Shown here: positions 3,001 to 54,000 of the stretch, one piece after another | How the letters are laid out: each line of letters starts with the position of its first letter | How positions within the stretch are numbered: position 1 is the first letter of the stretch | Assembly: GCA_051313645.2 (NCBI GenBank) | Contig: JBNRSN020000010.1 | Coordinates: 87,048,001 to 87,112,000 of the forward strand | Direction: 5' to 3' | Source: Centroscyllium fabricii | Taxonomy: Eukaryota | Length of the DNA: 64,000 nt | Made by a program: the position numbers and the translations under genes | The notes under the pieces: generated by a model | The model's input: only the letters and a program-made list of their open reading frames with translations | What the model was told of the DNA's origin: nothing | The model's database searches: none

Positions 3001-6000
3001 AGAGGAGGAGAAACTTCTTCACTCAGAGGGTGGTGGGGCTGTGGAATTTGCTGCCCCAGAGAGCTGTGGAAGCTACTACATTGAATAAATTTAAAACCGA
3101 GATAGACAGTTTCCTGGAAGTAAAGGGAATTAGGGGTTATGGTGAGCGGGCAGGTAAGTGGACACGAGGCAAGGTTCAGATCGGCCATGTGATCTCCTGG
3201 ACCAGTTTTTGATCGCCTAGATGGGTCGGAGAGGAATTTCCCAGATTTTTTCTCCCAAATTGGCCACTGGGTTTTTAATCTGTTTTTTTGCCTCTCCCGG
3301 GTGATCACATGGGTTTGGGCGGGATGCAGCGTAAAAATAAAAGTAAAATTGAGGTTAGGACCAGATCAGCCATGATCTTGTTGAATGGCGGAGCAGGCTC
3401 GAGGGGCCGATTGGCCTACTCCTGCTCCTATTTCTTATGTTCTTATATTTGAAGAAATTGTAACTTGGCATTTTTATATTTTTAATTACACACGCGAGTT
3501 CTGCTATGGCTTAGTGTTGTACAATTCCTAAATGATCTCATGTAGGGATTTAATTTGAATATTAACCACGATAAAGTTAGACATAAAATCACAGTATTTT
3601 CATGGTTTGGTGTTCCTCAGCCCAGTGCAGTATGCCACACAGCCAACCTGCTGCAAGGCATGTCTTGCTATCTTTCTGTAACTGTCAATGAGAGTTGTCC
3701 CAGGAGATTCAATCGTGGATTTCCCCTTCCTCTTTCTAGGCAAGTTGAGACTTTCAGCAAACTCTTACTTCACTGAACTGGCATATACTTGGCAAGAAAA
3801 TCATCAACATGCATGTCAGCTGTGGCTCAGTTGGTAGCACTCTCGCCTCAGAGTCAGAAGGTTGTAGGTTCAAGTCCCACTCCAGAGACTTGAGCACAAA
3901 AATCTAGGCTGACACTGCAGTACTGAGGGAGGTGCTGTCTTTCAGAGGAGACGTTAAAACAGAGACCATGTCTGCTCTCAGGTGGATGCAAATGACTCCA
4001 TGGCATCAATGTTCCGGTTAAGCTTGGTGTGGAGGTCCTGCGCAGGCCGCTCAGTGGTTTTTGAATGGATAAACCACTCATGCACATAAATTTGAACGGG
4101 CCACGCAGCCAAACAAAAATGAGAGGGAATGTTGCATGGCACTATTTCAAAGGGGAATTGACTTATCCCAGGTGGCCTGGCCAATATTTATCCCTCAACT
4201 GAACAAACACATCATCTGGTCATTATCACATTGTTGTTTGTGGGAGCTTGTTGAGAGCAAATTGTCTGCCGTGTTTCCTACATTACAACAGTGTCTACAC
4301 TTCAAAAGTACTTCATTGACTGTAAAGCGCTTTGGGACATCCTGTGGTTGTGAAAGGCGTTATGGCGTTATATAAATGCAAATATTTCTTTTCTCTTTTG
4401 CATTATTACTGTTCAAAGTCAAATGTCAAAACAATCTACAAAACATTACTGGTCAACTTGTTCAAGAAAGCATCGAGGAATTTAGTAGCATTTAGGCCAT
4501 CACTTTTAAGTTTCGCAAACTGATTTGGTGTAGCAGAATTTAAAACCAATATGCTTATAATGCATGTTTCCAAGGACATAAATAATGAATGAGCCATCAA
4601 TCTATAATCCCAAACACTGAAGCCTGAAGAGGTACAAAAGCACCTTGTAATAAAAGTAGGTACAGGTTGAAGTTTATTAATCCGGCATCTGAAAAACCAG
4701 CTGCTTCAGTCGTTCGGCACAGATTTTCCCGACTGCCCGGCGCATGCCCAGACAATTCAAAATGGCCGCCGTCGGGGCTGGGCTTCCCCTTCACCTAACA
4801 TATACTCACTGGCTCCCGGTTTAGTGACCACCCCAATGCCGATGGTGAATCCCAGGCCCAGAAGATAAGCTGTTGTGCCAGCCGCCTTTCGCAGGACGCG
4901 ATACAGGCAATGCTCGGTGCCCATCGCTGCCGGAGGCTCCTGCCTGGCTGCGTGCTGACGTCACCGCGTTCCGAAGCTGGCGTGCGGTGGCGTCACGTGA
5001 GCCGGGCTTGAGCTGCACATTGGGCCTCAGGCCTGCTGGAGCCGTGCAGCCAGCTCCCTGACCCGCAGCAGAATCGAGTGAGAGTTCCACCTGACCCTTG
5101 GGCTGAAAATCAACTGCCAAGTACCGGCGAGCGCATGCGCAGAGCATTGAAAATTTCGCATCGGCTGTGACTTCAATAATTCGGCGTTTTCAACAATCTG
5201 GAAGGGTGCTGGTCCCGACGCTGCCGGATTGATGAACTTCAACCTGTATAGCAGTCAGTTACTAAGTGTGCAAATTGCTAAGTCCAGCATTTAAGATGCA
5301 CAATTTTTACAATTGGAACTTAGAAATTACAGTACGTTTTGGCTAAACAGAGGGCAAGTTTTGCAGGTCTTAGTCAGATAATTTGTGGCTGGTGGAACAG
5401 GAACTGTTCCCAGATCATGCAACTGTACATGCTCGCCCTTTGGCTAAGAACATAAGAAATAGGAGCAGGAGTAGGCCAATCGGCCCCTCGAGCCTGCTCC
5501 GACATTCAACAAGATCATGGCTGATCTGATCCTAACCTCAATTTTATTTTTACTCTCCATCCCGCCCGAACCCATGTGATTAAAAACCCAGTGGCCAATT
5601 TGGGAGAAAAAATCTGGGAAGTTCCTCTCCGACCCATCTAGGCGATCTAAAACTGGTCCAGGAGATCACATGGCCGATCTGAACCTAGCCTCATGTCCAC
5701 TTACCTGTCCGCTCACCATAACCCCTAATTTCCTTTACTTCCAGGAAACTATCCATCTCTGTTTTAAATTTATTCAATGTAGTAGCTTCTACAGCTCTCT
5801 GGGGCAGCAAATTCCACAGCCCCACCATCCTCAGTGAAAGGAACAGTATTTACTGCATCCAAGCTCGATAGACTCTGGCCAAGAATAACAGTGGACGTGG
5901 GGAGGCATGGCTAATTTTTCTGGGAGGAAACTGGACGATGGGGGAAGAGAGGAAGGTCAGAAAGAGCAGAGAGTAAAAAATATCCTGTCCTCCGAATGTC

Positions 6001-9000: not shown

Positions 9001-12000
9001 CAGTTTTTAAAGGCGGAATTGACAGCGAATTTGCCAGTTCGCCATAATCCCGACCGCAAATTCCGGGCCTACGACTTTGTACCACACTATACAGTACACT
9101 GACCCATTAAGACATCAGGGAAATTTAAATATTCAGTTATTTTGATCAGGGGAAGAACAGTTTTGAACAAGGCTAATTAAACTTTATCTGATCCCACAAG
9201 ACAGATAACTAATCAGGTACAGGTTGAGCACCGTTAATCCATTACCCTAAAAACCGGCAGCTTCGAATGTCCGGCAATAATTTCCCCGCTGCGCCGCGCA
9301 AAATGGCTGCCATGATTGATGCTTTGGCGAATGATCTGCACATGCGCCGCTGAACGGCGAGCGCATGCGCAGATCATTCACAATGGTGTCTCCGAGCCGA
9401 TAGCGGGCTGGGCCGGGACTCCCCGAACGCGGGCTGGGCCGGGACTCCCCGAACGCGGGCTGGGCCGGGACCCCCCGAACGCGGGCTGGGCCGGGATTCC
9501 TCGAACGCGGGCTGGGCCGGGACCAGGACCACCCTAACGATGCTGGGCCGGGACTCGCCGAACGATAAGCGCATGCGCAGACCACTAACTGGCCGCCGGC
9601 CTTTCGCGGCGGCCATTTTGAATGGTCTGCGCATGCTCTCTCAGAAGCTTCAATCGTTCGGGATTTTCACGTTCCCGGCACTGGCCTGGTCCTGCCCGTG
9701 CCAGATTAACGGTGCTCAACCTGTATTTACAGTAGCCATGAAGAGAAAAACAGAAGCAGTCAGTAACATCAATCACATGGAGATATTGGGCCAGTATCTT
9801 GCTGGCAAAATAACAGTGTATTAACGCATACAGTCATTAATGTGCAAGTCACCCAGTAAATTCAGGGGATTAAGAGATACGGCGTGAGTTGCGAATCTCC
9901 AGAACTTGGTCAATTTTTGCTACTCTGCCATTTGCTTTGCACAAATATCATCTCGCCATTAGCCTCCCTGTTATTTTTAAGAACTAGCTGGATTTGCACA
10001 TTAATTGCCCATTAAACATGTTGCAGAAAGTTATTTTGGTGCAACGTGATCATTGTTAATGCAATGCCAATCAACCTATCTGGCCCAGAATGGGAACAAT
10101 TTAAAGTTTTCAATCTGATTCCTGCATGTAGTCAATTGTTGTTTGAGATTTAAAAAATGTCAAATATTGTTTCCTCTGATTTTTCATTTGTCTTATTTTT
10201 CTCTCAATCAATTTTCTTTCCCTCTCTATTTCTCTGTCCCTGATTTGACTAATTCACCCTCCTTCTCTGCCATTCCTCTGTTTATTTCTCAATCCTTAAA
10301 TCTCATTGGTTCAGGAGATATATGGTTGGTCCCACCATTAACTAAGGTCCCAGGTGTCCCATTGCCCTGGCCACACCATAATCGGTTTGCACTTACAGCA
10401 AGTTATGTCGCAAACATTTTGAGTTGAAGGGTGCATAAAAAAGTCTAACAAATGCAGCACTCCATGAGATGCCCTGCTCCAGCCCATTCATATTACCACA
10501 TTGAAGATTAAAAAGGACATTACCTCTGAAAGCATCCATTTGTTTTTGTATTCCAGTGTGCATACAGAAGTCAAACATCAGTTCAACATACTCTTCTGCA
10601 TTGTCTATGGTTACCATCTAAAACAAAAACAATGCAAACCAAAAATAAAAAGGCAAACAGTAACATTTCATTCCAACTTCTTTGACATACAGTGGAAATC
10701 TTACTGAGGAATCAAAAATAAGCTGATACAAGGCAATACACAAGACTGGGTAAAAGAGAAACCCTAGCCTGTCCTATGTTTTTCCCATGTTACCTAACCC
10801 AAATGCTAATATTGGAACAGTTCAGGCAGGGTGTGGTGGAAACAACATTAAAAGCAAAATAAACTCATTCACCCAATTATTTCTGAAAATTTTACTACTG
10901 ACCTCATCGTCACCATTTGGCTTCAGATCAACAGCTGTAAATCCATGTACTTTGGACGAAGGACAAAACTGGAAATTCAACCTGCAAGATTTGGACAAAT
11001 AATTTAATAAGGAAGCAATTAAAAATACACAATATTTAATAGTTCTTTTCAAATGGCTTGGGGTGCAAGTATTTAGTAATTTTCACAGTATAACTCACTT
11101 ATCTTTGGAACTTTCCTCATTATTCTCCCTCCCTCAAACTTTTTGCCTTGTAGGCACCTTATGGCTCAGCCAGATCAGGGACCTGGTGCAGCTAGATATC
11201 CCCCATCAATTCCATATACAGTATGACTGAACCATCAAGAATTCAGTTCAGTGCTAATCGAAAAAAAATCACGAGAACTGACCTTTCAGAAGTGTGAAAA
11301 TATAATTGACCATGACCCCAACAGACAACCACTAGTATCCACAGCAAACATCACCCGTGCATTGACGAACATTTTCCAACATTCCATAGACTCTGGATCA
11401 GTTCCGATGGAGTGGGGGGTGGCTAATGTAACCCCACTTTTTAAAAAAGGAGGGAGGGAGAAAACAGGGAATTACAGACTGGTCAGCCTGACATCGGTAG
11501 TGGGCAAAATGATGGAATCAATTATTAAGGATGTCATAGCAGACCATTTGGAAAGTGGTGACATGATAGGTCCAAGTCAGCATGCATTTGTGAAAGGGAA
11601 ATCATGCTTGACAAAGCTTCTGGAATTTTTTGAGGATGTTTCCAATAGAACAAACAAGGGAGAACCAGTGGATGTGGTGCATTTGGACTTTCAGAAGGCT
11701 TTCGACAAGGTCCCACACAAGAGATTGGTGTGCAAAGTTAAAGCACATGGGATTGGGGGTAATGTGTTGACGTGGACGGAGAACTGGTTGGCACACAGGA
11801 AACAAAGAGTAGGAGTAAATGGGCAGTTTTCAGAATGGCAGGCAGTGACCAGCGGGGTACCGCAAGGTTCGGTGCTGGGGCCCCAGCTGTTTACATTATA
11901 TATTAATGATTTGGACGAAGGGATTAAATGTTGTATTTCCAAATTTGTTGATGACACTAAATTGGGAGGCAGTGTGAGCTGCGAGGAGGATGCCAAGTGG

Positions 12001-21000: not shown

Positions 21001-24000
21001 TGGAAGTTTCGCTATCATTACAACCGCAAATTCTGAACCAATACATTTTAGATAAACTAGTAAGTAGCACACTTAAAAAATAACATCTAATCAAACAAAT
21101 TCAAAACATACAAAATTTCCTGGTACGTTCACTTACGTGTACGTTGGTTCCCAAATGCGCCTAAGCTTATCAGATTTTACATTTCCATTACAAGAAATCT
21201 GCAACAGTTTCTGCACATAACAGAAAATGGTTGCTCTGTAGTTTGAGAGGGGCAACTCCACTTCACGAGATGTTCCCAACCCTGCTACCTTAAGAGTCAG
21301 TGCTAATCGTGGTGAAGGAGTGCACTCCACTTCCTCCAGAAGCTCTGATCGAGGTGTTCCTACAAAAAACAGATTTCAAAGATTGAAGGACAGGGTCAGT
21401 ATTTATAACCATAACCAAAATGAACACATCAAACCAATATAATGTCTGCTTTGAGAAGATATCACTATACAACCAAATTGTAACATGTTGCGATTACAAC
21501 CTAGGTATGCAAAAAGAATGCAAGAAGTCACACAACACCAGGTTATAGTCCAACAGTTTTATTTTAAATCACAAGCTTTCGGAGCGTCTGCCCCTTCGTC
21601 AGATGAAAGAGAGGTTGATTTAAAGAACGCACATATGGAAGGGAGAGAAATCTGATCCCCCACATCTCACCTTAGCAGAGACAGACCACACAAAGGTGTA
21701 TTAACATATTTTAACATATCAGTCTGAGATCAATGAGTCTCTGCTAAGGTGAGATGTGGGGGATCAGATTTCTCTCTCCCTTCCATATGTGCGTTCTTTA
21801 AACCAACCTCTCTTTCACCTAACGAAGGGGCAGACGCTCCGAAAGCTTGTGATTTAAAATAAAACTGTTGGACTATAACCTGGTGTTGTGTGACTTCTTG
21901 CATTTGTCCACCCCAGTCCAACACCGGCACCTCCACATCATGCAAAAAGAATGGCATAGCTACAAGCCACAAAGTGAGAAAAGAAACAGTCAACAGGTGT
22001 GCTTTATGTAACGGTGGGAGGATGCCTCATTTCACAAATAAAATGAAAAGATCTTTAAAATGCACCGTTTTGATTTTATTTGTTGAATAAACAAATTTAC
22101 CTGGGGGAGGGATTTCTAAATCGGTTGTTTGCTGCACATTTGTACGACCAGGGCGTGGATCAAAGGCAGGTACTAAAGCAGAGAATTGCCGTTTTAGGAC
22201 AAAATCATCATCCCATGTCCGGCGACGTCCTCCTTTTGTTTCATATTCCTCTTCTTCCTGTGTTCCAAGGTTCAAATCAAGACAATTTTATTTTTAAAAG
22301 TATTATAAAACTATAAACATCAACAGAATACCAGACCCCAAACACAGCAATAAACGTCTGCATTATGACTTCCACAACAAGCAACTCGTAAGATTAGCAT
22401 TATATTGCAAGAATTTCTACAGTATTTCAAGAAAACACACTTTCTCATTTGTAACTACAGGTGAATAACATACCATAACTTCTTCATACTCTTGATCTTC
22501 TTGATTGTCATCTTCATTTTCATCATCCTCCTCATCTGGTTCAGGCAAATCCTCATCATCTTCAAGTTCCGCCAATAAAGTACTGGCACGACAGCTGTCT
22601 AGAAAATCTGTAGAGCATAAAATAAGGATCATCATCAGTTGGAATAAAAGACTTATTCCAGTCAGTTCAAAATTAATCTTAGAAATTAATGTTAAGTAGA
22701 AAAAGTAAATCATGTTTGGCTGCAAGATGAATCTACACAAAACATTTCCAAAACATAAACTGCTGAAAAATAACAAACTTCACTATCCATAAAACCAAAA
22801 CTTTGTAACAAGTTCAGTTCAAGTCAAAGTTATAAATACGAGTTGACTGACTGCAGCTTGCGTGAATCATCGTATTCTGTTGCAGAAATTCAATCCTATA
22901 TACATACACCCAAAATTTGCTGCTCGTCATGTGATGGTGGGGGAGAGTGAAGGGACATTAAGAGAGTCATCTTGGGAACTCAGCCCATTGGGGAAAAAAA
23001 AGTTGATCATCATCCAGTAACTATACTATCAAAATGGCAAACAAGACGTGGCAGGTCTACCACCAATGCTTGCAGTTTACTAACACAAATACAGGCTGTG
23101 CACCAGAAATCCGGCACGGGCGGGACCAGGCCCGTGCCGGGAAAGTGAAAAAAACGGCAGAATGAAGTCGGTCAGTGTGCATGCGCGCACCATTCAAAAT
23201 GGCCGCCCGCATGCGCACAACATTGGAAATGGCCGCTGGACGGTCTTGCGGAGTCTCCGCTGCGGTTTATGCCTCCTGATGACGGCCAGCAGGCTGCTCC
23301 GGGGAATGCTTCACCATGGCGAGCGCTCTGGACTCGCACATTCAAAACGTGGCGCGAGCCGCTGCGCCCTGACACCACGGAAGGCCCGGCTCGTCTGGCG
23401 GCCATTTTGAATGATCTGCACATGTGCTTGCCGTCCGGTGGCGCATGCGCAGATCATTCAAAACATCGGGCAGCCGTTTTGAATGATCGGCGCATGCGGC
23501 GATCAATCGCCGAAGCCGAGATCGCGGCTGCCATTTTGCGCATGTGCAGTGCAGTCGGGGCAATTTGTTCCAGAAGGCTGAAGCTGCCGGCGTTTCGGGT
23601 CACGGATTTCCGGTGCTCAACCTGTACCAAAAAGATAGCTATCAAAGGTTTGTGTTAGTTTGAATCCACAGTTTTGTACAATTTAGACACAAGTGTTTAT
23701 TTTATTTGCTCATTCACAGGATTAGGGCATCACTGGCAAGGCCAGCAATTATTAGCCATCCCTAGTTGTCCTAGAGAAGGTGGTGGTGAGCCGCCTTTTT
23801 GAACAGCTGCAATCCGTATGGTGAAAGTACTCCCACAGTGCTGTTAGGTAGGGAGTTCCAGGATTTTGACCCAGCGATGATGAAGGAACGGCGATATATT
23901 TCCAAGTCAGGATGGTGGGGAACTTGGAAGTGGTGGTATTCCATGTGCCCGCTGTCCTTGTCCTTCTAGGTGGTAGAAGTCGTGGATTTGAGAGGTACTG

Positions 24001-33000: not shown

Positions 33001-36000
33001 TGTTTATTACAAAAAGTATCAATGACTGATAGCTTAATAGATTGCAGACAATACTGCTGCTGTTTAACATGTCAGAATTCATAACAAAATTATAGTCTGG
33101 TCCCAGTGAAGCAGTGCAAGAAGGAAAATTGAGTAACAAGAGAGATAAGGAAATGTATTGCAAATGCCAAGCTGAAAGCCACATAGAAGAGAGTAATGCC
33201 TGGCAGAAATGCTCTTGAATTCCATTCAGTTAAGTAAAAGGACTCTTAATTGGTAAGGCTGATGTGCAGTCTAAAAGACCAAAATAACACAATGCACACT
33301 TGGCCTGAAATGCTCTAATGACAACTAGCACAGGGCAGTTAGTTTCACTTCTGAAAGTGCACGTTAAAAAGTCTCCCCTGCTGGCCGCGAATGAAGTTTG
33401 AGCAGCATCCATCCAATTCCTATTGGGCCTGGGGCTACAGCACAAAACTGCCCCATATTCAGCAGCAATTGGCAATCGCTTCAGATGGGCCACAGGGTGG
33501 CTGCTGTGAAAAATGTTACACTGATAGTTGGGAGTGTCCTTCTGAGGTTGGGGCTGAAGCACATTGTTGGGACAGGGCAGAGGGAGCTTTACTCTACATC
33601 TGACTGTGCTATACCTTATGTGGGAGTGCTTGATGCCGACACACTCGTAGTGTGCAACAGGAAAAGCTCGACTCCCCAGCATCAACACCTTTCAGCTTAA
33701 TGAGCACAAAAATTAAAATAGGGCAAAAACTGTTCATCCAGCTCCAATCACTTCTCTCATTTACCTTGCAGTACTACCCTATTCTAAAAAACCTTTTAAT
33801 AACATAAGCCTTGACTTTCCCAACAATTCTTTGGAAGAATCTCATTAAATGCCTTTTGAATATCCATATTCATGTCCTTTACAGTTCCACTCTTGTGATT
33901 TGATCAAAAATTCAATTAAATTAGTCAAGCACAGCCTGCCCCATAAAGTTAACCCTGACTGACCTGATTAGCCAGTGTGCTTCAAATTGTTAACCAATTC
34001 CATCCTGTACTATGAACTCCAAATGTCTAATCTGCCTAGAATTTCCTGAGTTAGCCCTTTCTTGAACACAGGTGGAACATTTACTACCCTCCGATCCAGC
34101 ACTATTGCGGAAAATTATGGTTACTGCCTCTGCTATTTAGACTTCCATGAAATGTTTTTAAATACACTTTCCTTCTAAATAATTATCTCCGCTTGTGGCT
34201 CATCCACATCTCCCTTAGGTATTCCTACAATCGCACTTTCACCATACAGATACACAACCCTTCATCAGAAAACCTCGGGACCGGGTGGGTCTCGGTTTTT
34301 GGATAAATACGGTTTTGAGAGTATGCGGATGCGCATTTCCATGTTTGCGGCCCAGCTCGCAGTCGGGGAACGACATATCGGCCGTTTGGAGCGGGAGGTC
34401 GGCCGTTTTTTTCCTCAGCACGCCATCAACAGCACGAGATCGGGGTAGGAACCTGTATTTTCTGCTGCAGCTTCAATTTATTTAAGAAAAAAATAATTTA
34501 AGAAAAACTGAAGTTTTTGGAGTTGCGGATAAGGGATTGTGTACCTGTACTCAGTGAAAACTGAGGTGAAACACCTAATCACCTTCACCATTTCCTCACT
34601 CTTCAGCATAGGATCCAGTAAAATTCATAATTTCTTCTCTCACAAAGTAGGACAAAAGAACAGCTATATTGGCATTGAAAACTTAAGTCACCAAAACTGG
34701 TTGCTTTAAAAAAAGTCTTCAGTTAATAAGCTTGTTATGATACAACTAGGTAAAAAGTGCTAAAGATTACAGGTACACAATCCCTTATCCGAGACCTGTG
34801 GGACTGGACGGGTCTCAGTTTTCGGGTTTTTGGATGGTGCCCAGTGCGCATAGCACGTGCGCATTTCCGTGTTTGCGGCCCAGTTCGCAGTCGGGGAACG
34901 GCAGATCGACGGTTTATTTTCTCAGCACGGCATCAACAGCAACCTGTTAGCTTGCCTCAAGGTAAAAATATCTTTTTTTCCCCTGCTGATAAATGCTGCA
35001 GCTGGTCACTTCCTTCAATTTATTTAAGAAAAAAAGTTATTTTGGCGCAACTCGGGTTCTCGGTTTTCGGAGCTTTTCGGATGTGCGGTTAAGCGATTGT
35101 GTACCTGTACTTTCAAACATTTTAACAAGCCAACTGAGAGGGTCAGTGCGAAGAGGTATCAAGGAAAAGTAATAAACAACTTAATATCAGTGATTCCCCA
35201 CACAACACGTTTGCTCTCAGCTGGCCTGTACGGTGAAGTGGAACATACATCAACTGAATTGCATCCAAGCTGCTCAATTGTTTTGTGCAAATTGCAGTAA
35301 TTTATGACCATTTCATTTAAGAGTATTTTGGATTCTACCATTGGGTATTAATAATGTTATTAATTAGTTCAGGCTGGAATGAAACCTAGTGTACAGGCAG
35401 GGTCGTGAAAAATGTTGCCAAACAAGATGTATTTCAAACCTAGAATCTTGCATTTACATTTCACAAAAACCTGGGTTCTTGTTTTAACATGACAAAAATT
35501 GCAAAATGAAGAATCCAGGTTTTCAATTAAAAAACATTACATACCAGTAAGCACCACAATTACTGCAATTAGTGCTGTAAGGATAAAAACAAAATCTTAC
35601 TGGTTTACCATTATGCAGTTCTCCTGTGATCGTGCCCTCGCCTGGTGGATTGCCATCTTGATCTCTCCATTTCCAGTCAATGCCTCGAACTACACGTGCA
35701 CCAGGCACCATGTACTTCAGAACCTGAGAACGCACCAGGCGTCTCTGTCTCCTTAGGTTGGCTTCTGCTTCCTTAGCTGCTTTTCCTATTAAGGAAACAT
35801 AACATTACAAAATATTAAAATCATGATACCTTCTTTCTTGGAGTAGGTAGAGAGAAAAAATGGAGGAGAATGCAATTAACAGTATAAAATACTTTTACTT
35901 AAATTATGTACTGTATTATGATTACTATTGTTACTATGGTATGGAACAAAAACATTTAATCTAGGTTTTTACAAATAATTGCCTATCAGCAGCAGGTACA

Positions 36001-45000: not shown

Positions 45001-48000
45001 GAGATCATGGCTGATCATCCAAACCCAGTACCCCGCCCCTGTCCTCTCCCCATACCCTTCGATCCCTATCGAGCCTGCATCAACACATATCCCACCCTAT
45101 CCCCGTAACCCCACACATTCAATCGCCCTTACACTAAGGGTCAATTTATCCTGGCCAATCAACCTAACCCGCACATCTTTGGACTGTGGGAGGAAACCGG
45201 AGCACCCGGAGGAAACCCACGCAGACACGGGGAGAATGTGCAAACTCCACACAGATAGTACCCGAGGCTGGATTTGAACCCGGGTCTCCAGTGCTGTGAG
45301 GCAACAATGCTAACCACTATGCCACCTACTATCAGATGGGAGTTTGGGGCGAAAGAGAATTCTGAGTGACTTGGAGTATGTCTGTGCGGAATATGAATTG
45401 ACAAGTAGTCATGGACTGCTTCAGCTTCCTTACACTGTCCAGCTTAACAGTTTTTCCAACTACAGGTTGAGCACCGTTAATCCATTACCCGAAAACCCGG
45501 CAGCTTCGAACATCCTATGATCCGGCAATAATTTCCCTGACTGCGCCGCCCATGCGCAAAATGGCCACCACGATTGATGCTTCAGCGAATGATCTGCACA
45601 TGCGCCGCCGAACGGCAAGTGCATGCGCAGATCATTCACAATCATCTCTCCGAGCCGATAACGGGCTGGGCCGGGACTCCCCGAATGCGGGCTGGGCCGG
45701 GATTCCCCGAAAGCGGGCTGGGCCGGGATTCCCCGAACGCGGGCTGGGCCGGGATGCCCCGTACGCGGGCTGGGCCGGGATGCCCCGTACGCGGGCTGGG
45801 CCGGGATGCCCCGAACGCGGGCCAGGACCATCCGAATTATGCTAGGCCAGGATTCGCCGAACGATAAGCGCATGTGTAGACCACTAACTGGCCGCCGGCC
45901 TTTCGTGGTGGCCATTTTTAATGGTCTGCTCATGCGCTCTCCGAAGCTTCAATCGTTCGGGATTTTCACTTTCCCGGCACTGGCCTGGTCCCGCCCGTGC
46001 CGGATTAACGGTGCTCACCCTGTACTTCAGAATTAAAGCCACATGCTACAACAAAGGATTGGAGATGCTTCCACAAAAGTTGGCTTGCACAGAATAAATG
46101 TTAGTCCCTTTGCATTTAAGAACAAAATAAATTCTCAGTAGTACAAGTAGACTGACGGGAACGTCTCAGCATCAAATATAAATATATCAAATATACACAG
46201 CAACTGATAAGTAAGAAGGGCAGCTTCCATATACTTCATGTACTGTACAGATAAAATCAACTGGAAGCTACAGGAAATCAAAATCAGACATAAGCATCAA
46301 ACATTCTCTTTCATACCTGCAAGTTATATGAAGAGCCAGGGGTATCGTACAAATGAAGAGGCAGCCTCTCAATTGATTCTAACACTGCTATTAGCTTTCG
46401 AACAAGGGCAACAGCTGGCCGACTAAAAAGAAAAAATATGTTACAAAACTGAAAGGAATTGTTTTCAAAAATGCACTTCAAAATGTAAAAAAAGCCCCAC
46501 CCACCTTTCTTCATCTTCATTTTCACTGAATGCCGTTTTGAAGACATTTATTCGCTCGATCAGTTGACTACAATCTTGTTTCACATCTAATTCCACGTTC
46601 TAGAGTGAAAGAAAATGAGTGAATAATGCAAACTACAAGGCAGATCAAAAATAAAGTGGTGCTCTTTGACAACATCATACGAACATTGTTGAGGACAGTA
46701 AGAAGTGCTTGCACCAGCCCACTGCTGCACATCTCATAGGGCGAGATTGTATTTTCATCCTTTAGTAGTACAATCAAGTTCTCCAGGGCAGTTTTCATTA
46801 AATCTCTCCATGTAGCTTCCCCGTCCACACCCTGCAACACAAAAAACATTATCTTCTTCATCTCTGAATTTTACCATTCAGCAGATTCCTTCCCAAGTAT
46901 CGATCAGTGGCATCGTAATCTAGATTTTTCACTTGGGTAAACCCACAAGTGTAAAAGAGAAGCACGATTTCCACTTGCCTGCCAAGAAATGTGCTGACAT
47001 GCCAGAGTTTCCAAGGTCGGACAAATGTTCAGAATGACAAGAGCTCCTGGTGTCACAAACACCAGTTTGAGTGTGTGTGCGGGCAGTAACCTGCATGCTT
47101 CTGTAGGATTTAAAGGCCGTCAGCAGCTTAGAAGAGGTAGCGCACCAAAAACGTTTGCAGCAATTCTGAAAACTCATCCACAGAAAGGTGTCTGTTAGAT
47201 CTGCAGGCTGCAAGAGACACGCAGGCTCATCTAGAGGCTGCGGCAGTGCTTCTGAATGAAGTTAACCAATAACATACATTATATGGATCCTGCAATGTTG
47301 TCCCACAAGTGCAGCACAGCAGTGGCCAGGACAGTCATTGCCTACTCGGCAATTACCATGCCAGGTCAGGTGAGGTGAAATGGCCCAGCTGCACTCTTCA
47401 AATATTCACAACCACTTTACCCCCACTGTGATGAAGTGCTTCAGCTGCCTACCATAAATGGACATGAGGCGGCCTGCGTTCCTTCACACCCCCAGTCTTA
47501 ACTTTCACGTATTCCTTCACACACATCCTTACACGCTTTCACCCTACTAAAAGCCTCACATGGTATGTAACTGCTTTGCTCATCACACATTATGCCAACA
47601 ATTGGGTTTGACTGTATCTGTTAATAACCAGAGATCATAGCACTTTAAAAAAAAATGTAGCCCACAACAGCAGAGCGATTGGTTACAAGTGGTTGATCCT
47701 CTTCCACACTGTGCCTTCGCTCCCCCATGATGAGGGAGTTATGGAGTTTCAGAGCAAGAAGGCAATAGAGGGAATTGGAGGCAGAGAAGCAGGAGCCAGC
47801 TGGAGGTTCCTTTGGATATTCTGCTTCCCTCATCCTATCATACCTATATTACCGTTCAGTAAACTAAATCAAGAACCCCACCTTGCTCCTTCTATTGAAA
47901 GTGGCATGTGAACTCAGCTCCTCAGCAACCTATTTCAACCTCTCTTCCTCCAGATATGCCTGAGAAGAACGAGCACATGCATCCTCCTCTAGTCTTGCCA

Positions 48001-51000
48001 GCACTTCAGAATACTCAACACCACTCACTCACACCATCCCCTCTACAGCAACAGGTCAGAGACAGCAACTTGGGGGCAGGGGAGAATTAGAAAGTGAGTG
48101 GAGGGGAGAAAATACTGGGTGTGGAACACAAGTTGGATGACATTGCTGATCGGAGGGTCAGGAGACTTCACCCATTAGCTGCAGATCTCAGGCCCTGCTT
48201 TTAAAAAGATAAGTATGTGGAAATGGCATGTGACACTGTGCAGTGGATGCTCAGCACAGTCATCTGATCGATGGTTTCCCAGTACCGCAGCCCACCCTTG
48301 ATTGCGGGCAGCTTTAGGGAGATGGGCATTGAAGCACCCATAACAGAAGCTCCAAAGGTAACATTTTACAAACAGCTTCACAAAATTTTACAACCGTATT
48401 ATTTGGATTTCAATTAAAATGTTTCAAGAAGCAACAGTAATATTTAATTATCCAAAATTATATTTAGCAGAAATGCCAAGTAGGGTGATTTGGTTTATCT
48501 CGAGCTCATAGACAGAAATGTCAATTTACTTACCTGTCTATTAGCATGAAGCTCCCATGCAGACTCTAGTTGTGTAGCTATGTTTCGCAGTGTGACTACC
48601 ACTCCTCGAGGCATACTTTCCACAGCCTTAAAATGATCGTCATACAAATCTCTGGCCATGGTTCGCACCTGCAAAAAATGTTTTAAATATTTTTTTAATT
48701 TAAAAAAATATATTTTCTAGGTGGTAAAAGGGAGGTTGGTGGTGGTTCACTACTGAATTCTATTTTAATCTCAGTTGTGAGGCAGACTGCATCACTCTTT
48801 TACTAGTTCAGTTGTAATTTCACCAACTGAAATGAAATACAAAAAAAAATTTCTGTTGTGCATTATGACTGAACACTCTGCTTTGTACTTAGTTACATTC
48901 TTGAAACGGGAACTCTATGCTAACAGCCAAGTAACATCACACGTTTCGATGTAGAAGAGGTGCAAGTTAGAAGTACTTTCAAAAGTTTATATAACCCTTT
49001 GTATAAAAAGAAAATCTACCAATGCAGAGATTTTGACTGTCATGAGGCAACCTACTGGAAAATCTCCCTAACAAGCCTCCAAGCCAGAAGAGAGACTCCA
49101 GTGGGTATTTCACTGAAAACATTTCATAATGAAGATGTGGACTGGTCTTTGTCGTCCCATTAAAGTAAGACTGATGCCTGTAGCAATTGGGGAAGTTTTA
49201 ATATTTCCTTACAGTTGTCTTCCCCCCCCCATGGAGGGAAAACAAAGTAACTTTCATTGAAAGTATGTGCTCCCTCCTCTGAAAATGTCAAGAGCATTAA
49301 GAGTTTTGAGGGTTCAGTGACTCCATCCACCAACAGAGACTACGAAAGGGCTCTGGCTCCTGACCACTATCTAGTGACCCCTGCTGGCAGTACACATACA
49401 TGAACAAGATAAAGCTCAGATATGATGGCCACTGTAATCAAATACCTGTAGCCTGCCAAACAGTTAATCAAGGTGGAGGAAATAGGCTCATGGAAAAATA
49501 TAAAAACTCAAAACACTTGGTTCCCCACAACTAGACGGAACTTACTGAGCCCATTTTCCAACACAATAAAGTGATAATCATGTCATTCCACTGAACTATA
49601 AAATTACATAACTATTTGAAGTAATGTGCTAAAACCAAAGTAAAAAAATTGCTAATGCCCGGCAATTTATGTCAGCATACAATGCAGAGGTTATCAAAAC
49701 AATTAAATTAAAAAACAGCCTACAGTGTACAAAACAGAAGTTAAACACTGTACACACACATTTTAATAGGCAGAAAAAAAAGTCTAGTTTGTACCCAAAT
49801 GTCACTTCCCTCCATTACCTGAAATTTCTCATGGCCAAATTAACATTTTAAACAAATAAAAACTTTCAACGGCCTCTGGTCTGTGTTCTTCTCAAGTTAG
49901 AAAATGTGAATATTCTAATTAGTGACAGTTGTAAGACAGAGACAGAAAGCGAGCACAGGCTAGAGACATAGAAACAGAGTGCAAGAGCAACAGACAAACA
50001 CACACAGCAGGAAAATGGATTGGATTACCACAACCTATGCACTGCTTTTCGCTGGCACTTGCCCCCAGCCAGATCGATGCCTCTAACCATGACCGATAAA
50101 CTGCTTGAGGAGCAGGTCATAGTCCTCCCAATACCTACTATCCATGGCCTGAACTCACCTGGCAATCTGCAAACCCACAACACTTCCCAGATCCCTCCTC
50201 CAATCAGATCCCTCAGTAACAAGTACAAGATAGTTGCCACCTGAAAATGTGGCTGATTGGTGCCCCACACCTTTGCACCCAAAAGGGAAGAGAGAGACAG
50301 AAGGGCCAGGAAAGAAGTAAACAAAAGAGAACGGGATAAAATAGCAAGAAGTCACACAACACCAGGTTATAGTCCAACAGTTTTATTTTAAATCACAAGC
50401 TTTCGGAGCGTCTGTCCCTTCGTCAGGTGAAAGAGAAGTCTCTTTCACCTGACGAAGGGGCAGACGCTCCGAAAGCTTGTGATTTAAAATAAAACTGTTG
50501 GGACTATAACCTGGTGTTGTGTGACTTCTTGCTATTTGTCCACCCCAGTCCAACACTGGCACCTCCACATCAGGGATAAAATAGCAAATGATAGAAGACA
50601 ACAGAGCGAGAAAAGTATTGTTGACAACCTCAGTGTGATGTTGAGAGAGAGATAAGCAGAACAGGAGTGAGATAGAAAAAGAAACATCAACACAAAGATG
50701 GCAATTAAGGGAGATAACATACATTCCAATTTACAATGAGCAGTGTTACAGGAGGTCCATTTGTTGTCTCTATACATTAGCATGATCTGTACCTTGGCTC
50801 AACATATTTTTTAGTAAACACTCCCATACATACACATATTTACACACAATTTAAAAAAATAAAAAAGTTTATGCATCTAAGCTATAAACTGCTACATCAT
50901 TCTCCCTTATTGACTTTAAGAACAAAGACTTCAAAAAAAATCAGCAACAACCAGTAAGTTTGCAAATATCAGATTCCCAGCATTTACCATTAATCTCAAA

Positions 51001-54000
51001 GTATATATTCCAGAGTACAGTACCTCACACTTACAGCCAATTTGTGAAAAATGAATTATGCGTATATTACGTATCCTCACTTGCAGCATAATTTTAAGAG
51101 TTAAAGCTGGTACTGATCATAAATGGTTAGTATGTTTAATGTTAACACTGATCTATTTTGTTCCCAGAGTATAAACTCACCTTTTGTTTAGTTTTCTCCA
51201 GCTTTGATTTCAGCTTTCTTCCTCTTTTGCCAGTCCAGCCAGCTACGAATTCTGATCCTGCAAAACAGGAAGCAAGCTTTAAAGTAAACTATTCTTGTTC
51301 CAAGCTCAATATTTTAATAACACGTGACCAAAAATGGTACTATAAAATAACCTACAAGTTTACTTGCATCCTTACCAAGCGATGTTTCTGCAGTAAATGA
51401 ATGCTTGGTCCCCCTATTGGACTCGAACACAAATCCAGGCAGATCCTCCTTCAATATAGTGGCTTGCTGACCATCAGAATTGTGGATTGCGATTTCTCCT
51501 TCTTTTAAACAGGTAAGAGACCAGTTGCCTACAGTAAGTTTTGTTGGCCCAGGTGTAGTCAGAATGGGTTGGCTGGTAGTAGCTGGTTTGACTTGACTTC
51601 GAGCTCGTTGCAACTTTTCCAAGAACTCACTTCTGCTCTCTGTCAACATACAGATAGACAACAACATTATTTCACGCAGCTATCAGAAATGCATTACAGC
51701 TACAAACAGCAATACTGCACTGTCAACAGCTGTTAAAAATAGGATTTTAAAAAGTTTCTATTACTCTGTAGCAATCTTCCAGCAAAGGCGGCACGGTGGT
51801 TAGCATTGTTGCCTCACAGCGCTAGAGACCCGGGTTCAAATCCAGCCTCGGGTACCATCTGTGTGGAGTTTGCACATTCTCCCCGTGTCTGCGTGGGTTT
51901 CCTCCGGGTGCTCCGGTTTCCTCCCACAGTCCAAAGATGTGCAGGTTAGGTTGATTGGCCAGGATAAATTGACCCTTAGTGTTAGGGGGATTGAATATGT
52001 GGGGTTACGGGGATAGGGTGGGATATGTGTCGGTACAGGCTCGAGGGATATGGGGACAAGGCAGGGTCGGGGTGCTGAGTTGGGATGATCAGCCATGATC
52101 ACATTGAATGGCGGAGCAGGCTCGAAGGGCCGAATGGCCTACTCCTGCTCCTATCTTCTATATTTCTGTTATAACTTAACATATAGCTTCCTTTTCCTCT
52201 GGCAATGAAAATTATATGGATCATTTTGCAATACTGAACATGGCAACAGGTTTCCTTGTACAACATCAAAGGTTTTCTTGTCCTATGCATAACAATTCCT
52301 TTCTGATCAATCATTTTTTTAAATCACTAGTTTGATTCAATGTTGTGGATAAGGCTCTCAAAACACACTGTTCCACAGAACAGTGGGATGTGGCTCACTT
52401 CTTCAAGTCTCCACTCATTTGCAATTTAAAAGGGAAGTACAGAAAAGAAGCAAGGCACTTTCCCACAGAAAGGGGAGGAAAAGAAACAGAAGTCACCTAA
52501 AACTAATTTTATGCCTCCTGGAAAATGCTGCAAAGATAAGATTGGGAGAAGTCTGGGATAAACTTGCCTGTTGGCTATAGTATGAGGTTCAGAAGACCTA
52601 CAGTTAATCGGAGGAAACATGCACACACACTCAACCTCATTTCTCTTGCGATCCTTCTTCTAAAGATAACACATGCTAGGATATCCTTCCACTGATACTG
52701 ATTTTTTAAATATTCGCTTATGAGATGTGGACGTCGCTGCCAGGGCCAGCATTTATTGCCCATCCCTAATTGCCCTCGAGAAGGTGGTGGCGAGCCGCTG
52801 CAGTCTATATGGTGAAGGTACTCCCACAGTGCTGTTAGGTAGGGAGTTCCAGGATTTTGGCCCACCGACGATGAACGATCAGCGATATACTTCTAAGTTA
52901 GGATGATGTGCGACTTGGAGGTGGTGGTGTTCCCATGCACCTGCTGCCCTTGTCCTTCCAGGCGGTAGAGATCGCAGGTTTGGGAGGTGCTGCCGAAGAA
53001 GCCTTGGCGAGTTGCTGCAGTGCATCTTGTAGATGGTACACACTGCAGCCACGGTATGGTGGTGGAGGGAGTGAAGGTTTACGGTGGTGGATAGGTGCCA
53101 ATCAATCGGGCTGCTTTGTCCTGGATGGTGTCGAGCTTCTTGAGTGTTGTTGGAGCTGCACTCATCCAGGCAAGTGGAGATATTCCATCACACTCCTTCC
53201 TTGTGCCTTGTAGATGGTGGAAAGGCTTTTGGGAGTCAGGAGGTGAGACACTCGCCACAGAATACCCAGCCTCTGACCTGCTCTTGTTGCCGCAGTATTT
53301 ATATGGCTGGTCCAGTAAAGTTTCTGGTCAATGGTGACCCCCAAGATGTTAATGGTGGGGGATTTGGCAATGGTAATGTCGTTGAATGTCATGGGGAGGT
53401 GGTTAGGCTCTTGCTTATTGGAGATAGTCATTGCCTGGCATTTCTGTGGTGCGAATGTTACCTGTCACTTCATTATCTGATAAGTTATGAGTGGCGCTGA
53501 ATACTGTGCAGTCATCAGTGAACATCTCCTTTTCTGACCTTATGTGGCTGGTCAAGTTAAGTTTCTGGTCAATGGTGACCCCCAGGGTCCTCTTCTCGCC
53601 ATTCTTCATGTTTAAGCTTAAGCATGCAGCTATTTTATCACAAGGGCCACAAGCAAGACCAATCCCATGCACATATATGCACTTTCAGCTGGGCCACTGG
53701 GCAACAACCAGAAGCTGAAGCCATGGCTTAATTTCCCCTCCCTGTCCTAGAAACACAAACCAAATGCAGCACCCCACTCCGCCACTGCCGAGAGCAACAG
53801 CAGAGACTAGGAATCTAACTTGGGACTTTCTTGACCTGCGCAAAAATCACAAAATGCATGTGCTCACGAAGCCATCAGGGAATCTATACAGTTCAACATA
53901 TACTAGACACACACACTTTACCTGAGCTGTCAGAACCACCTTCTGGGCTTCCACTAGAATACATGGTGGCTAATTTCCCATCCAAGATGAATCGAAACCA

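Follow-up and report, generated by a model that had tools for sequence, protein, structure and literature searches.

Insertions of EN+ Penelope-like elements (PLEs) are known to combine an inverted copy with a tail on one side only (PMC8557442, PMC3846280). Among these elements, the Neptune and Nematis types are defined by an ORF with a reverse transcriptase (RT) and a GIY-YIG domain, the latter with CCHH residues, and by a CX2-5CxxC linker (PMC8557442). In vitro work on PAc, a Poseidon element of the anole, showed cleavage and extension of both target strands and a pair of RT start sites, one on each side of the tail; the hammerhead of PAc needs protein for cleavage yet is dispensable for insertion (PMC11167929). 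The same paper presents the steps of PLE integration that follow first-strand synthesis as not yet validated. Pairs of hammerhead motifs on opposite strands, 100 to 700 bp apart, have already been noted as well (PMC4209133).

We analyzed a stretch of 64,000 nt from the genome of Centroscyllium fabricii (referred to as the window, to which all coordinates apply), with a focus on a short fold-back insertion at 50333-50587 and on its relatives in the 7.2-Gb genome.

Results

The insertion is bounded by a 15-bp target-site duplication: GGGATAAAATAGCAA is found exactly at both 50333-50347 (left copy) and 50573-50587 (right copy), on the plus strand, and the insert enclosed by the two copies measures 225 bp. 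From left to right, the insert consists of a tail-less inverted arm (50344-50438, minus strand), which covers the pseudo-LTR (pLTR) of the parent element from just upstream of the hammerhead to an inner start site, located some 35 nt ahead of the ORF ATG; a head-to-head junction (50437-50438, unstranded) about 12 nt upstream of the catalytic core; the body of the tailed arm (50439-50537, plus strand), which is the sense strand of the pLTR; and a Penelope "tail" of 35 nt (50538-50572, plus strand), which in full-length elements runs directly into the ORF start codon. The inverted arms, 50339-50436 (98 nt) and 50439-50537 (99 nt), differ by one substitution (50415, T versus C) and by one extra base in a G run (50500-50502), and the left arm of the hairpin overlaps the duplication by 9 nt. 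The last 4 nt of the left copy of the duplication (GCAA) match the element too, and its last 9 nt match with one bulge. The hairpin has a predicted fold of -190 kcal/mol (z = -28), with none of 200 shuffles being equally stable, and its predicted loop comprises 4 nt. A preliminary description of the locus had given an insertion of about 230 bp with a 15-bp duplication, a tail of about 35 nt, arms of about 97 bp, and a loop of 2 nt; our measurements agree with it on all points except the loop.

A second head-to-head insertion of the same family is located at 21507-21953 (plus strand). It has a 14-bp duplication (21507-21520 and 21940-21953), one tail, and arms that are longer and unequal, one of which has a core mutated to CUAA. 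The window also contains other repeats, namely, 26-nt GC-rich tandem repeats at 9377-9569 and 45635-45848, which belong to a dispersed family rich in GCGCATGCGC palindromes (a word found about 14 times in the window), and two LINE-like fragments at 3015-3445 and 5445-5843, which form an inverted pair with 94 to 97% identity, about 2 kb apart.

The host gene, on the minus strand, is likely HECTD1, as judged from an exon at 35526-35804 that matches the HECTD1 MIB/HERC2 structure (E = 3e-23); another exon carries a Sad1/UNC domain. The insertion lies in a GT-AG intron of about 2.5 kb, likely of HECTD1 (48669-51180, minus strand), with about 590 nt between its end and the donor site. Frame continuity suggests that the two exons flanking this intron (51180-48669) belong to the same gene, and a search of PDB and Pfam with the upstream exon (51317-51679) gave no match. 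The minus-strand hammerhead motif of the insertion had been placed in the HECTD1 pre-mRNA, a likely assignment.

The arm corresponds to the final 134 nt of the pLTR of an abundant Penelope-like element, whose ORF ATG marks the end of the tail. A genome-wide count, as proposed earlier, yielded 36,622 exact copies of a 15-mer of the arm and 21,546 exact copies of a 23-mer; longer copies of the family extend upstream into the ORF. A protein search gave loci with open frames of more than 900 codons, and in all of the 13 loci examined, which were picked for long frames, an ORF of the 880- to 890-aa type has part or all of the arm upstream, with the arm also present downstream of the stop codon in 12 of them. 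The layout of long copies is pLTR-ORF-pLTR, and the arms before and after the ORF are 90 to 95% identical.

Full-length relatives, not the stub itself, possess an intact, stop-free ORF of 890 aa, which matches RVT_1 (E = 6e-10) and contains the DKG, GTAMG, and RYIDD motifs. Pfam GIY-YIG (PF01541) was matched by the C-terminal domain in 32 of 50 aligned relatives, a profile built from relatives of this domain matches T4 EndoII (E = 0.0024), and the best structural match of the domain model (pLDDT 91) is I-TevI (probability, 1.00; E = 0.027). Foldseek with the same model gave no match at an E value of ≤0.001, Pfam gave no GIY-YIG match with the element's own C-terminal domain alone, and PHROGs gave one weak endonuclease match (E about 0.1) with the endonuclease domain. 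The CCHH residues are conserved in the GIY-YIG domain (C62, C66, H86, and H102), and a CX4CX2C linker is present between RT and EN (CHSNLCKTC at residue 752). By the definitions of PMC8557442, these sequence motifs class the family as an EN+ PLE of the Neptune/Nematis type; the label "Neptune-type" that we use below refers to the linker motif, which is common to Nematis elements too. The proposal that the locus is an extremely truncated PLE insertion is thereby supported, the arm being the pLTR end of such elements in this genome.

Many copies of the family (L149 and L151 to L161) have intact ORFs of 880 to 890 aa and paired pLTRs that are nearly identical, which suggests recent activity. Between subfamilies, the pLTR is strongly divergent upstream of the hammerhead and conserved from the ribozyme to the ATG; in the 5' pLTR of L159, the region immediately upstream of the hammerhead contains several head-to-tail repeats of a 58-nt unit. 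A full-text literature search, which covered mostly papers outside subscription and neither Repbase nor Dfam, found no account of this Penelope family, and within the same scope it found neither a per-insertion count of single tails nor target-derived bases in PLE arms.

Both arms contain a hammerhead motif. On the plus strand (50445-50482), the motif is an intact minimal type I hammerhead, with stem I UCAC/GUGA, the CUGACGA box, an A, a 5-bp stem II with an AGAC loop, GAAA, and GCUU; its predicted cut is after 50478, the same position as predicted earlier. On the minus strand (50393-50430), which is the sense strand of HECTD1, stem II of the minimal type I motif is interrupted by an A-C mismatch at 50415; the predicted cut of this motif is between 50397 and 50396, and in the fold computation it did not form a hammerhead even when isolated. 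The earlier claim of a hammerhead on each strand therefore holds for the motif, and for an intact form on the plus strand only. The pattern CTGAYGA-N5-30-GAAAGCT is found three times in the window versus 0.08 times expected, twice here and once in the 21507-21953 insertion. CUU is a poor hammerhead cleavage triplet; in this family it is the norm, with 238 of 244 cores having it. The model search that had been proposed did not recover the motifs, since the Rfam scan gave no hammerhead family match at an E value of ≤10, and our identification rests on the published description of minimal hammerheads, not on a covariance model. The plus motif has the PLE minimal-hammerhead core (CUGANGA, GAAA, NUH, and helices I and II), and the extra nucleotide 9/10.1 (A), the G10.1-C11.1 pair, and the palindromic 15.2-16.2 (AGCU) are all present. 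The preliminary description had read the extra A after the core as a defect, whereas such an extra nucleotide is a normal trait of PLE minimal hammerheads (PMC4209133).

In the copies selected by their ORFs, the core is intact in 28 of 37 motif instances, with only core position 7 varying freely and loop II being variable. Changes in the stems are one-sided and keep the pairing (G-U to A-U in helix II and UCAC to UCGC in helix I), and no double changes occur within the family. This pattern suggests that selection acts on the source elements rather than on the 50333-50587 stub. At the stub, forcing the hammerhead helices over the hairpin costs 72 kcal/mol on the plus strand and 75 kcal/mol on the minus strand, and both motifs are thus predicted to be sequestered by the hairpin, as anticipated for the minus motif. 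On either strand, the antisense arm would be transcribed first, and the ribozyme copy would emerge into a waiting partner; the product in the host pre-mRNA is therefore likely an inert duplex of about 98 bp. We predict that the hammerheads in the stub are passengers that are folded shut.

Head-to-head hairpins of this kind are numerous. Defining a tight hairpin as two cores within 30 nt, we counted 1,607 loci genome-wide, and the junctions differ from locus to locus among the 50 that were listed. The exact 50437-50438 junction is shared by 10 loci; 4 of them have the tail on one side and 6 on the other, both stem-II types occur among them, and their duplications are unrelated. The hairpin junction thus recurs, as had been asked, although the tail side and the stem-II type vary. 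Additionally, 437 hairpins join further upstream of the core, at least 720 matches (720/730 strand matches) join inside the ribozyme with loss of the core, and no head-to-tail tandems were found at these loci. Tight hairpins are repeated, independent products, not copies of one unit. A common origin with L078, which has the same junction and the same extra G, was considered and rejected, as loop II, the site-A sequence, and the flanks all differ, and a MITE or foldback DNA transposon was likewise rejected, as the tail is at one end, the ends vary, and the duplications span 10 to 17 nt instead of being fixed.

In the first 50 tight hairpins along contig C1, one arm ends near the ATG and the other 25 to 50 nt before it in 47 cases, with two tails in 1 case and no tail in 1 case. 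Duplications of 10 to 14 nt were found in 38 of the 50, within an overall range of 10 to 17 nt and with ends that vary by several nucleotides, as obtained with a finder biased toward long matches. A second sample, the first 100 matches on C1, gave 47 adjacent pairs and 37 unpaired arms (22 tailed and 15 tail-less). The adjacent pairs combine a tailed with a tail-less arm in 38 of 47 cases, and 19 of these 38 are symmetric within 25 nt versus 8.6 by shuffling (p about 1e-4); the tail-less arm is the longer one in 14 and the tailed arm in 5. At L127, the tail-less arm is up to 1.5 kb longer than its tailed partner. The arms of one insertion share subfamily variants (37/37, 35/38, and 26/29 versus 25.6, 20.1, and 10.7 expected). 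Microhomology of at least 2 nt was seen at 47% and 55% of 38 junctions versus 22% and 15% in shuffles, the count being limited to 38 scorable loci, with 10 of 48 left out for lack of an anchor. The target sites of the hairpins are 70% AT. By hand count, 27 of 50 listed upstream hairpins join at CATATG/CACATGTG, and AAGCTT forms the center of 22 of the 53 hairpins listed near the cut. Tight hairpins make up 8.8% of core-proximal anchors (2 × 1,607/36,622; 15-nt anchor) versus 3.0% of anchors about 25 nt upstream (2 × 437/29,300; 14-nt anchor).

Two sequence differences between arms were seen repeatedly. An extra G in GTTGGAC is present in 7 of 266 instances (L076, L078, L018, L027, L116, L117, and L155), on one arm only in the four paired loci checked, and this word is possibly an RT slip site. 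In the site-A region, L003 and L010 display an identical G/C difference between arms, with TTGTATTTG in the tail-less arm and TTCTATTTG in the tailed arm.

The tailed arm of the insertion at 50333-50587 reads TTGCTATTTG, whereas the family form is TTGCATTTG in 85 of 150 instances. The extra T, at 50533 (plus strand), is absent from the family and renders the tailed arm complementary to the target end of this very locus, and the 24-mer that includes it is found genome-wide only here and at one other locus. A 9-nt microhomology at the left junction was rejected, as it depends on this T, which leaves 4 nt and a bulged match. At L004 (oriented positions about 1026 and 1595), a locus picked up via its likeness to 50333-50587, the target duplication is matched in reverse complement by about 10 nt of the tailed arm; the partner arm of L004 is broken by another repeat. 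In most of the 86 listed pairs, the family sequence is preserved in the tailed arm at the point where the other arm enters the target, even with near-matching targets (L179 and L193). The target-derived base at 50533 in the tailed arm makes it likely that, at some stage, one of the two arms served as the template for the other. Template-switch repair can correct imperfect palindromes, and the arm-to-arm templating at this locus likely took place either at integration or by later repair of an imperfect palindrome.

Discussion

Based on these results, we consider it very probable that the insertion is the 5'-truncated, head-to-head pLTR end of a Neptune-type PLE, for which both cut strands likely primed reverse transcription and the short copies were joined, with the hammerheads as passengers predicted to be shut. 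If the family behaves as the anole element does in vitro (PMC11167929), the target would be cut in a staggered fashion, which would provide two 3' ends. One of them would prime about 35 nt before the ATG, aided by 1 to 4 nt of microhomology, and yield the tail-less arm, while the other would prime at the ATG and yield the tailed arm. Both copies would halt about 12 nt past the ribozyme, either the 3' ends of the cDNAs would anneal or snap-back synthesis would link the two, and fill-in would create the target-site duplication. We infer two primings, one per strand and per start site, which would place two antisense cDNAs head to head.

The pairs with unequal arms bear directly on this proposal. 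Copying of the tailed cDNA cannot yield a tail-less arm that exceeds its partner by up to 1.5 kb, nor can copying of the tail-less cDNA yield a longer tailed arm; inequality in both directions therefore means that both strands are able to make long copies. In the symmetric cases, which include 50333-50587, end annealing and snap-back may both apply. Snap-back of a single cDNA, or a later homogenization of the arms, would also account for the excess of symmetric pairs, the variants shared between arms, and the target-derived base. Ribozyme-cut RNA is not supported as the main template: by hand count, 22 of 53 listed near-cut hairpins are centered on AAGCTT, and about 4 arms start exactly at the cut.

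A doubtful but serious alternative involves a single top-strand cDNA that is primed from the inner site and turns back on itself at the junction. Self-templated synthesis would continue past the primer into the end of the target, and the product would then anneal to a short bottom-strand cDNA of the tail, which would make the right arm a DNA-templated copy of the left one. Such a route would account for the T that completes the complementarity to the target, with its 24-mer found only twice genome-wide, for the tailed arm of L004 with about 10 nt of its own duplication, for the excess of symmetric pairs, for the 14-to-5 ratio of longer tail-less to longer tailed arms, and for locally templated re-priming inserts at some junctions (L034, L040, and L186). 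However, the tailed arm retains family sequence at the target boundary in most of the listed pairs, L004 was ascertained by its similarity to this locus, and the same base is explained by a later template-switch repair of an imperfect palindrome. Furthermore, perfect zero-loop centers at 6-bp palindromes better suit the annealing of two ends, and the extra G is on one arm only in all of the paired loci checked.

It is also conceivable, and we propose it only tentatively, that the junction marks the 5' end of the element RNA, in which case transcription would start just upstream of the hammerhead and both cDNAs would reach the capped end. The higher share of core-proximal anchors in tight hairpins (8.8% versus 3.0%) is in favor of such a run-off, as are two features of the pLTR: in 11 of 16 long copies from a sister subfamily, a word that we take, from the TATA and initiator consensus, to be TATA-like precedes an initiator-like A by 30 nt, and the junctions of 13 of 50 listed hairpins fall no more than 1 nt from this A, which is not part of a palindrome (hand count). 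Against it, an end near -14 is seen in only 1 of 37 unpaired arms, and in three pairs with one arm stopping at -14/-15, the partner differs by 27, 116, and 214 nt, with two of the partners running much further upstream. The AACTTC subtype, to which this locus belongs, mostly passes that A and joins at TTTAAA or TGATCA palindromes, the AG/CT-rich word at the junction gives microhomology unaided, and a C derived from the cap would be indistinguishable from a templated C.

A broader scheme would combine these elements, with PLE integration as a coordinated two-strand reaction that uses a distinct start site per strand on the same RNA and whose shortest products run off the capped 5' end immediately ahead of the hammerhead and are closed by a snap-back able to write target bases into the other arm. 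We regard this full scheme as rather unlikely. If true, the locus with the target-derived T would be a frozen record of snap-back, and the 1,600-plus hairpins would be a genome-wide readout of the second-strand stage.

A further reading, which in its retrozyme-like form goes back to the preliminary description, is a non-autonomous retrozyme- or MITE-like unit, copied whole and with ribozymes on both strands. The abundance of tight hairpins (1,607) and the maintenance of the motif in elements picked by their ORFs, with 28 of 37 intact and only core position 7 free, could have pointed in this direction. Nevertheless, we find this reading highly improbable: the junction is not constant between loci, the exact junction seen 10 times comes with the tail on the left or on the right and with both stem-II types, hundreds of hairpins (at least 720 matches) join within the ribozyme and are without its core, head-to-tail tandems are absent at these loci, and both motifs are masked, the minus one having a broken stem II. 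Finally, palindromes can be generated in long-read libraries, and the hairpin tip is spanned by none of the contigs examined, but an assembly or library fold-back artifact can practically be dismissed given that the duplication is exact, the tail one-sided, and the arms diverged, that both flank-element junctions are covered by contigs from 4 runs (2 samples, 1 study), and that the same layout is seen with distinct duplications at dozens of loci. No empty allele is present among the joints listed for 2 samples, outside of which there are 198 further joints, a result that is uninformative.

Taken alone, a single locus such as this one, a dead stub with masked ribozymes, is of little weight. Its population of relatives bears on an open question, because the PLE steps that follow first-strand synthesis lack validation in the account of PMC11167929. 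The rule of one tail, the arms unequal in both directions, the self-complementary junctions, and the occasional target-derived bases are concrete predictions for an in vitro system, and the intact 890-aa ORFs offer material for such tests. As a putative side effect, many introns would gain about 100 bp of duplex RNA that could be edited or diced.

The layout and the kind of element are already known (PMC8557442, PMC3846280, and PMC4209133); the new detail is a tailed-arm base that matches the locus's own target. Like the complex insertions of EN+ PLEs (PMC8557442, PMC3846280), the insertions described here are strongly 5' truncated, with an adjacent inverted and 5'-truncated copy, a tail of 30 to 40 bp at one end, and palindromes at the inverted junction. 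They differ in that the rotifer examples in those papers have duplications of 8 to 10 bp versus mostly 11 to 14 bp here, and in that the insert at 50333-50587 comprises only 225 bp, with no coding sequence and a tail that ends at the ATG, whereas the published tails reach into the ORF. The motif resembles the minimal type I hammerheads of metazoan PLEs (PMC4209133) in its core boxes, 4-bp helix I, extra 9/10.1 nucleotide, G10.1-C11.1 pair, and palindrome in place of helix III, but its helix II has 5 bp versus 7 to 8 bp in Schistosoma, and whereas the opposite-strand pairs of the same source are more distant, only 14 nt separate the two motifs here, which are complementary throughout.

With PAc (PMC11167929), the family shares AT-rich targets, and it would also share the pair of RT start sites around the tail and the use of both target strands. 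Reverse transcription of PAc starts 111 to 118 nt inside the ORF, with no strand preference or homology, whereas the starts here would be at the ATG and 35 nt before it, one per end and with slight microhomology. Animal non-LTR retrozymes (bioRxiv 10.64898/2026.07.22.740005) likewise derive from PLE pLTRs, are noncoding, and carry a type I hammerhead; they form head-to-tail tandem families, whereas the insertions of Centroscyllium fabricii are head to head, with a junction specific to each locus.
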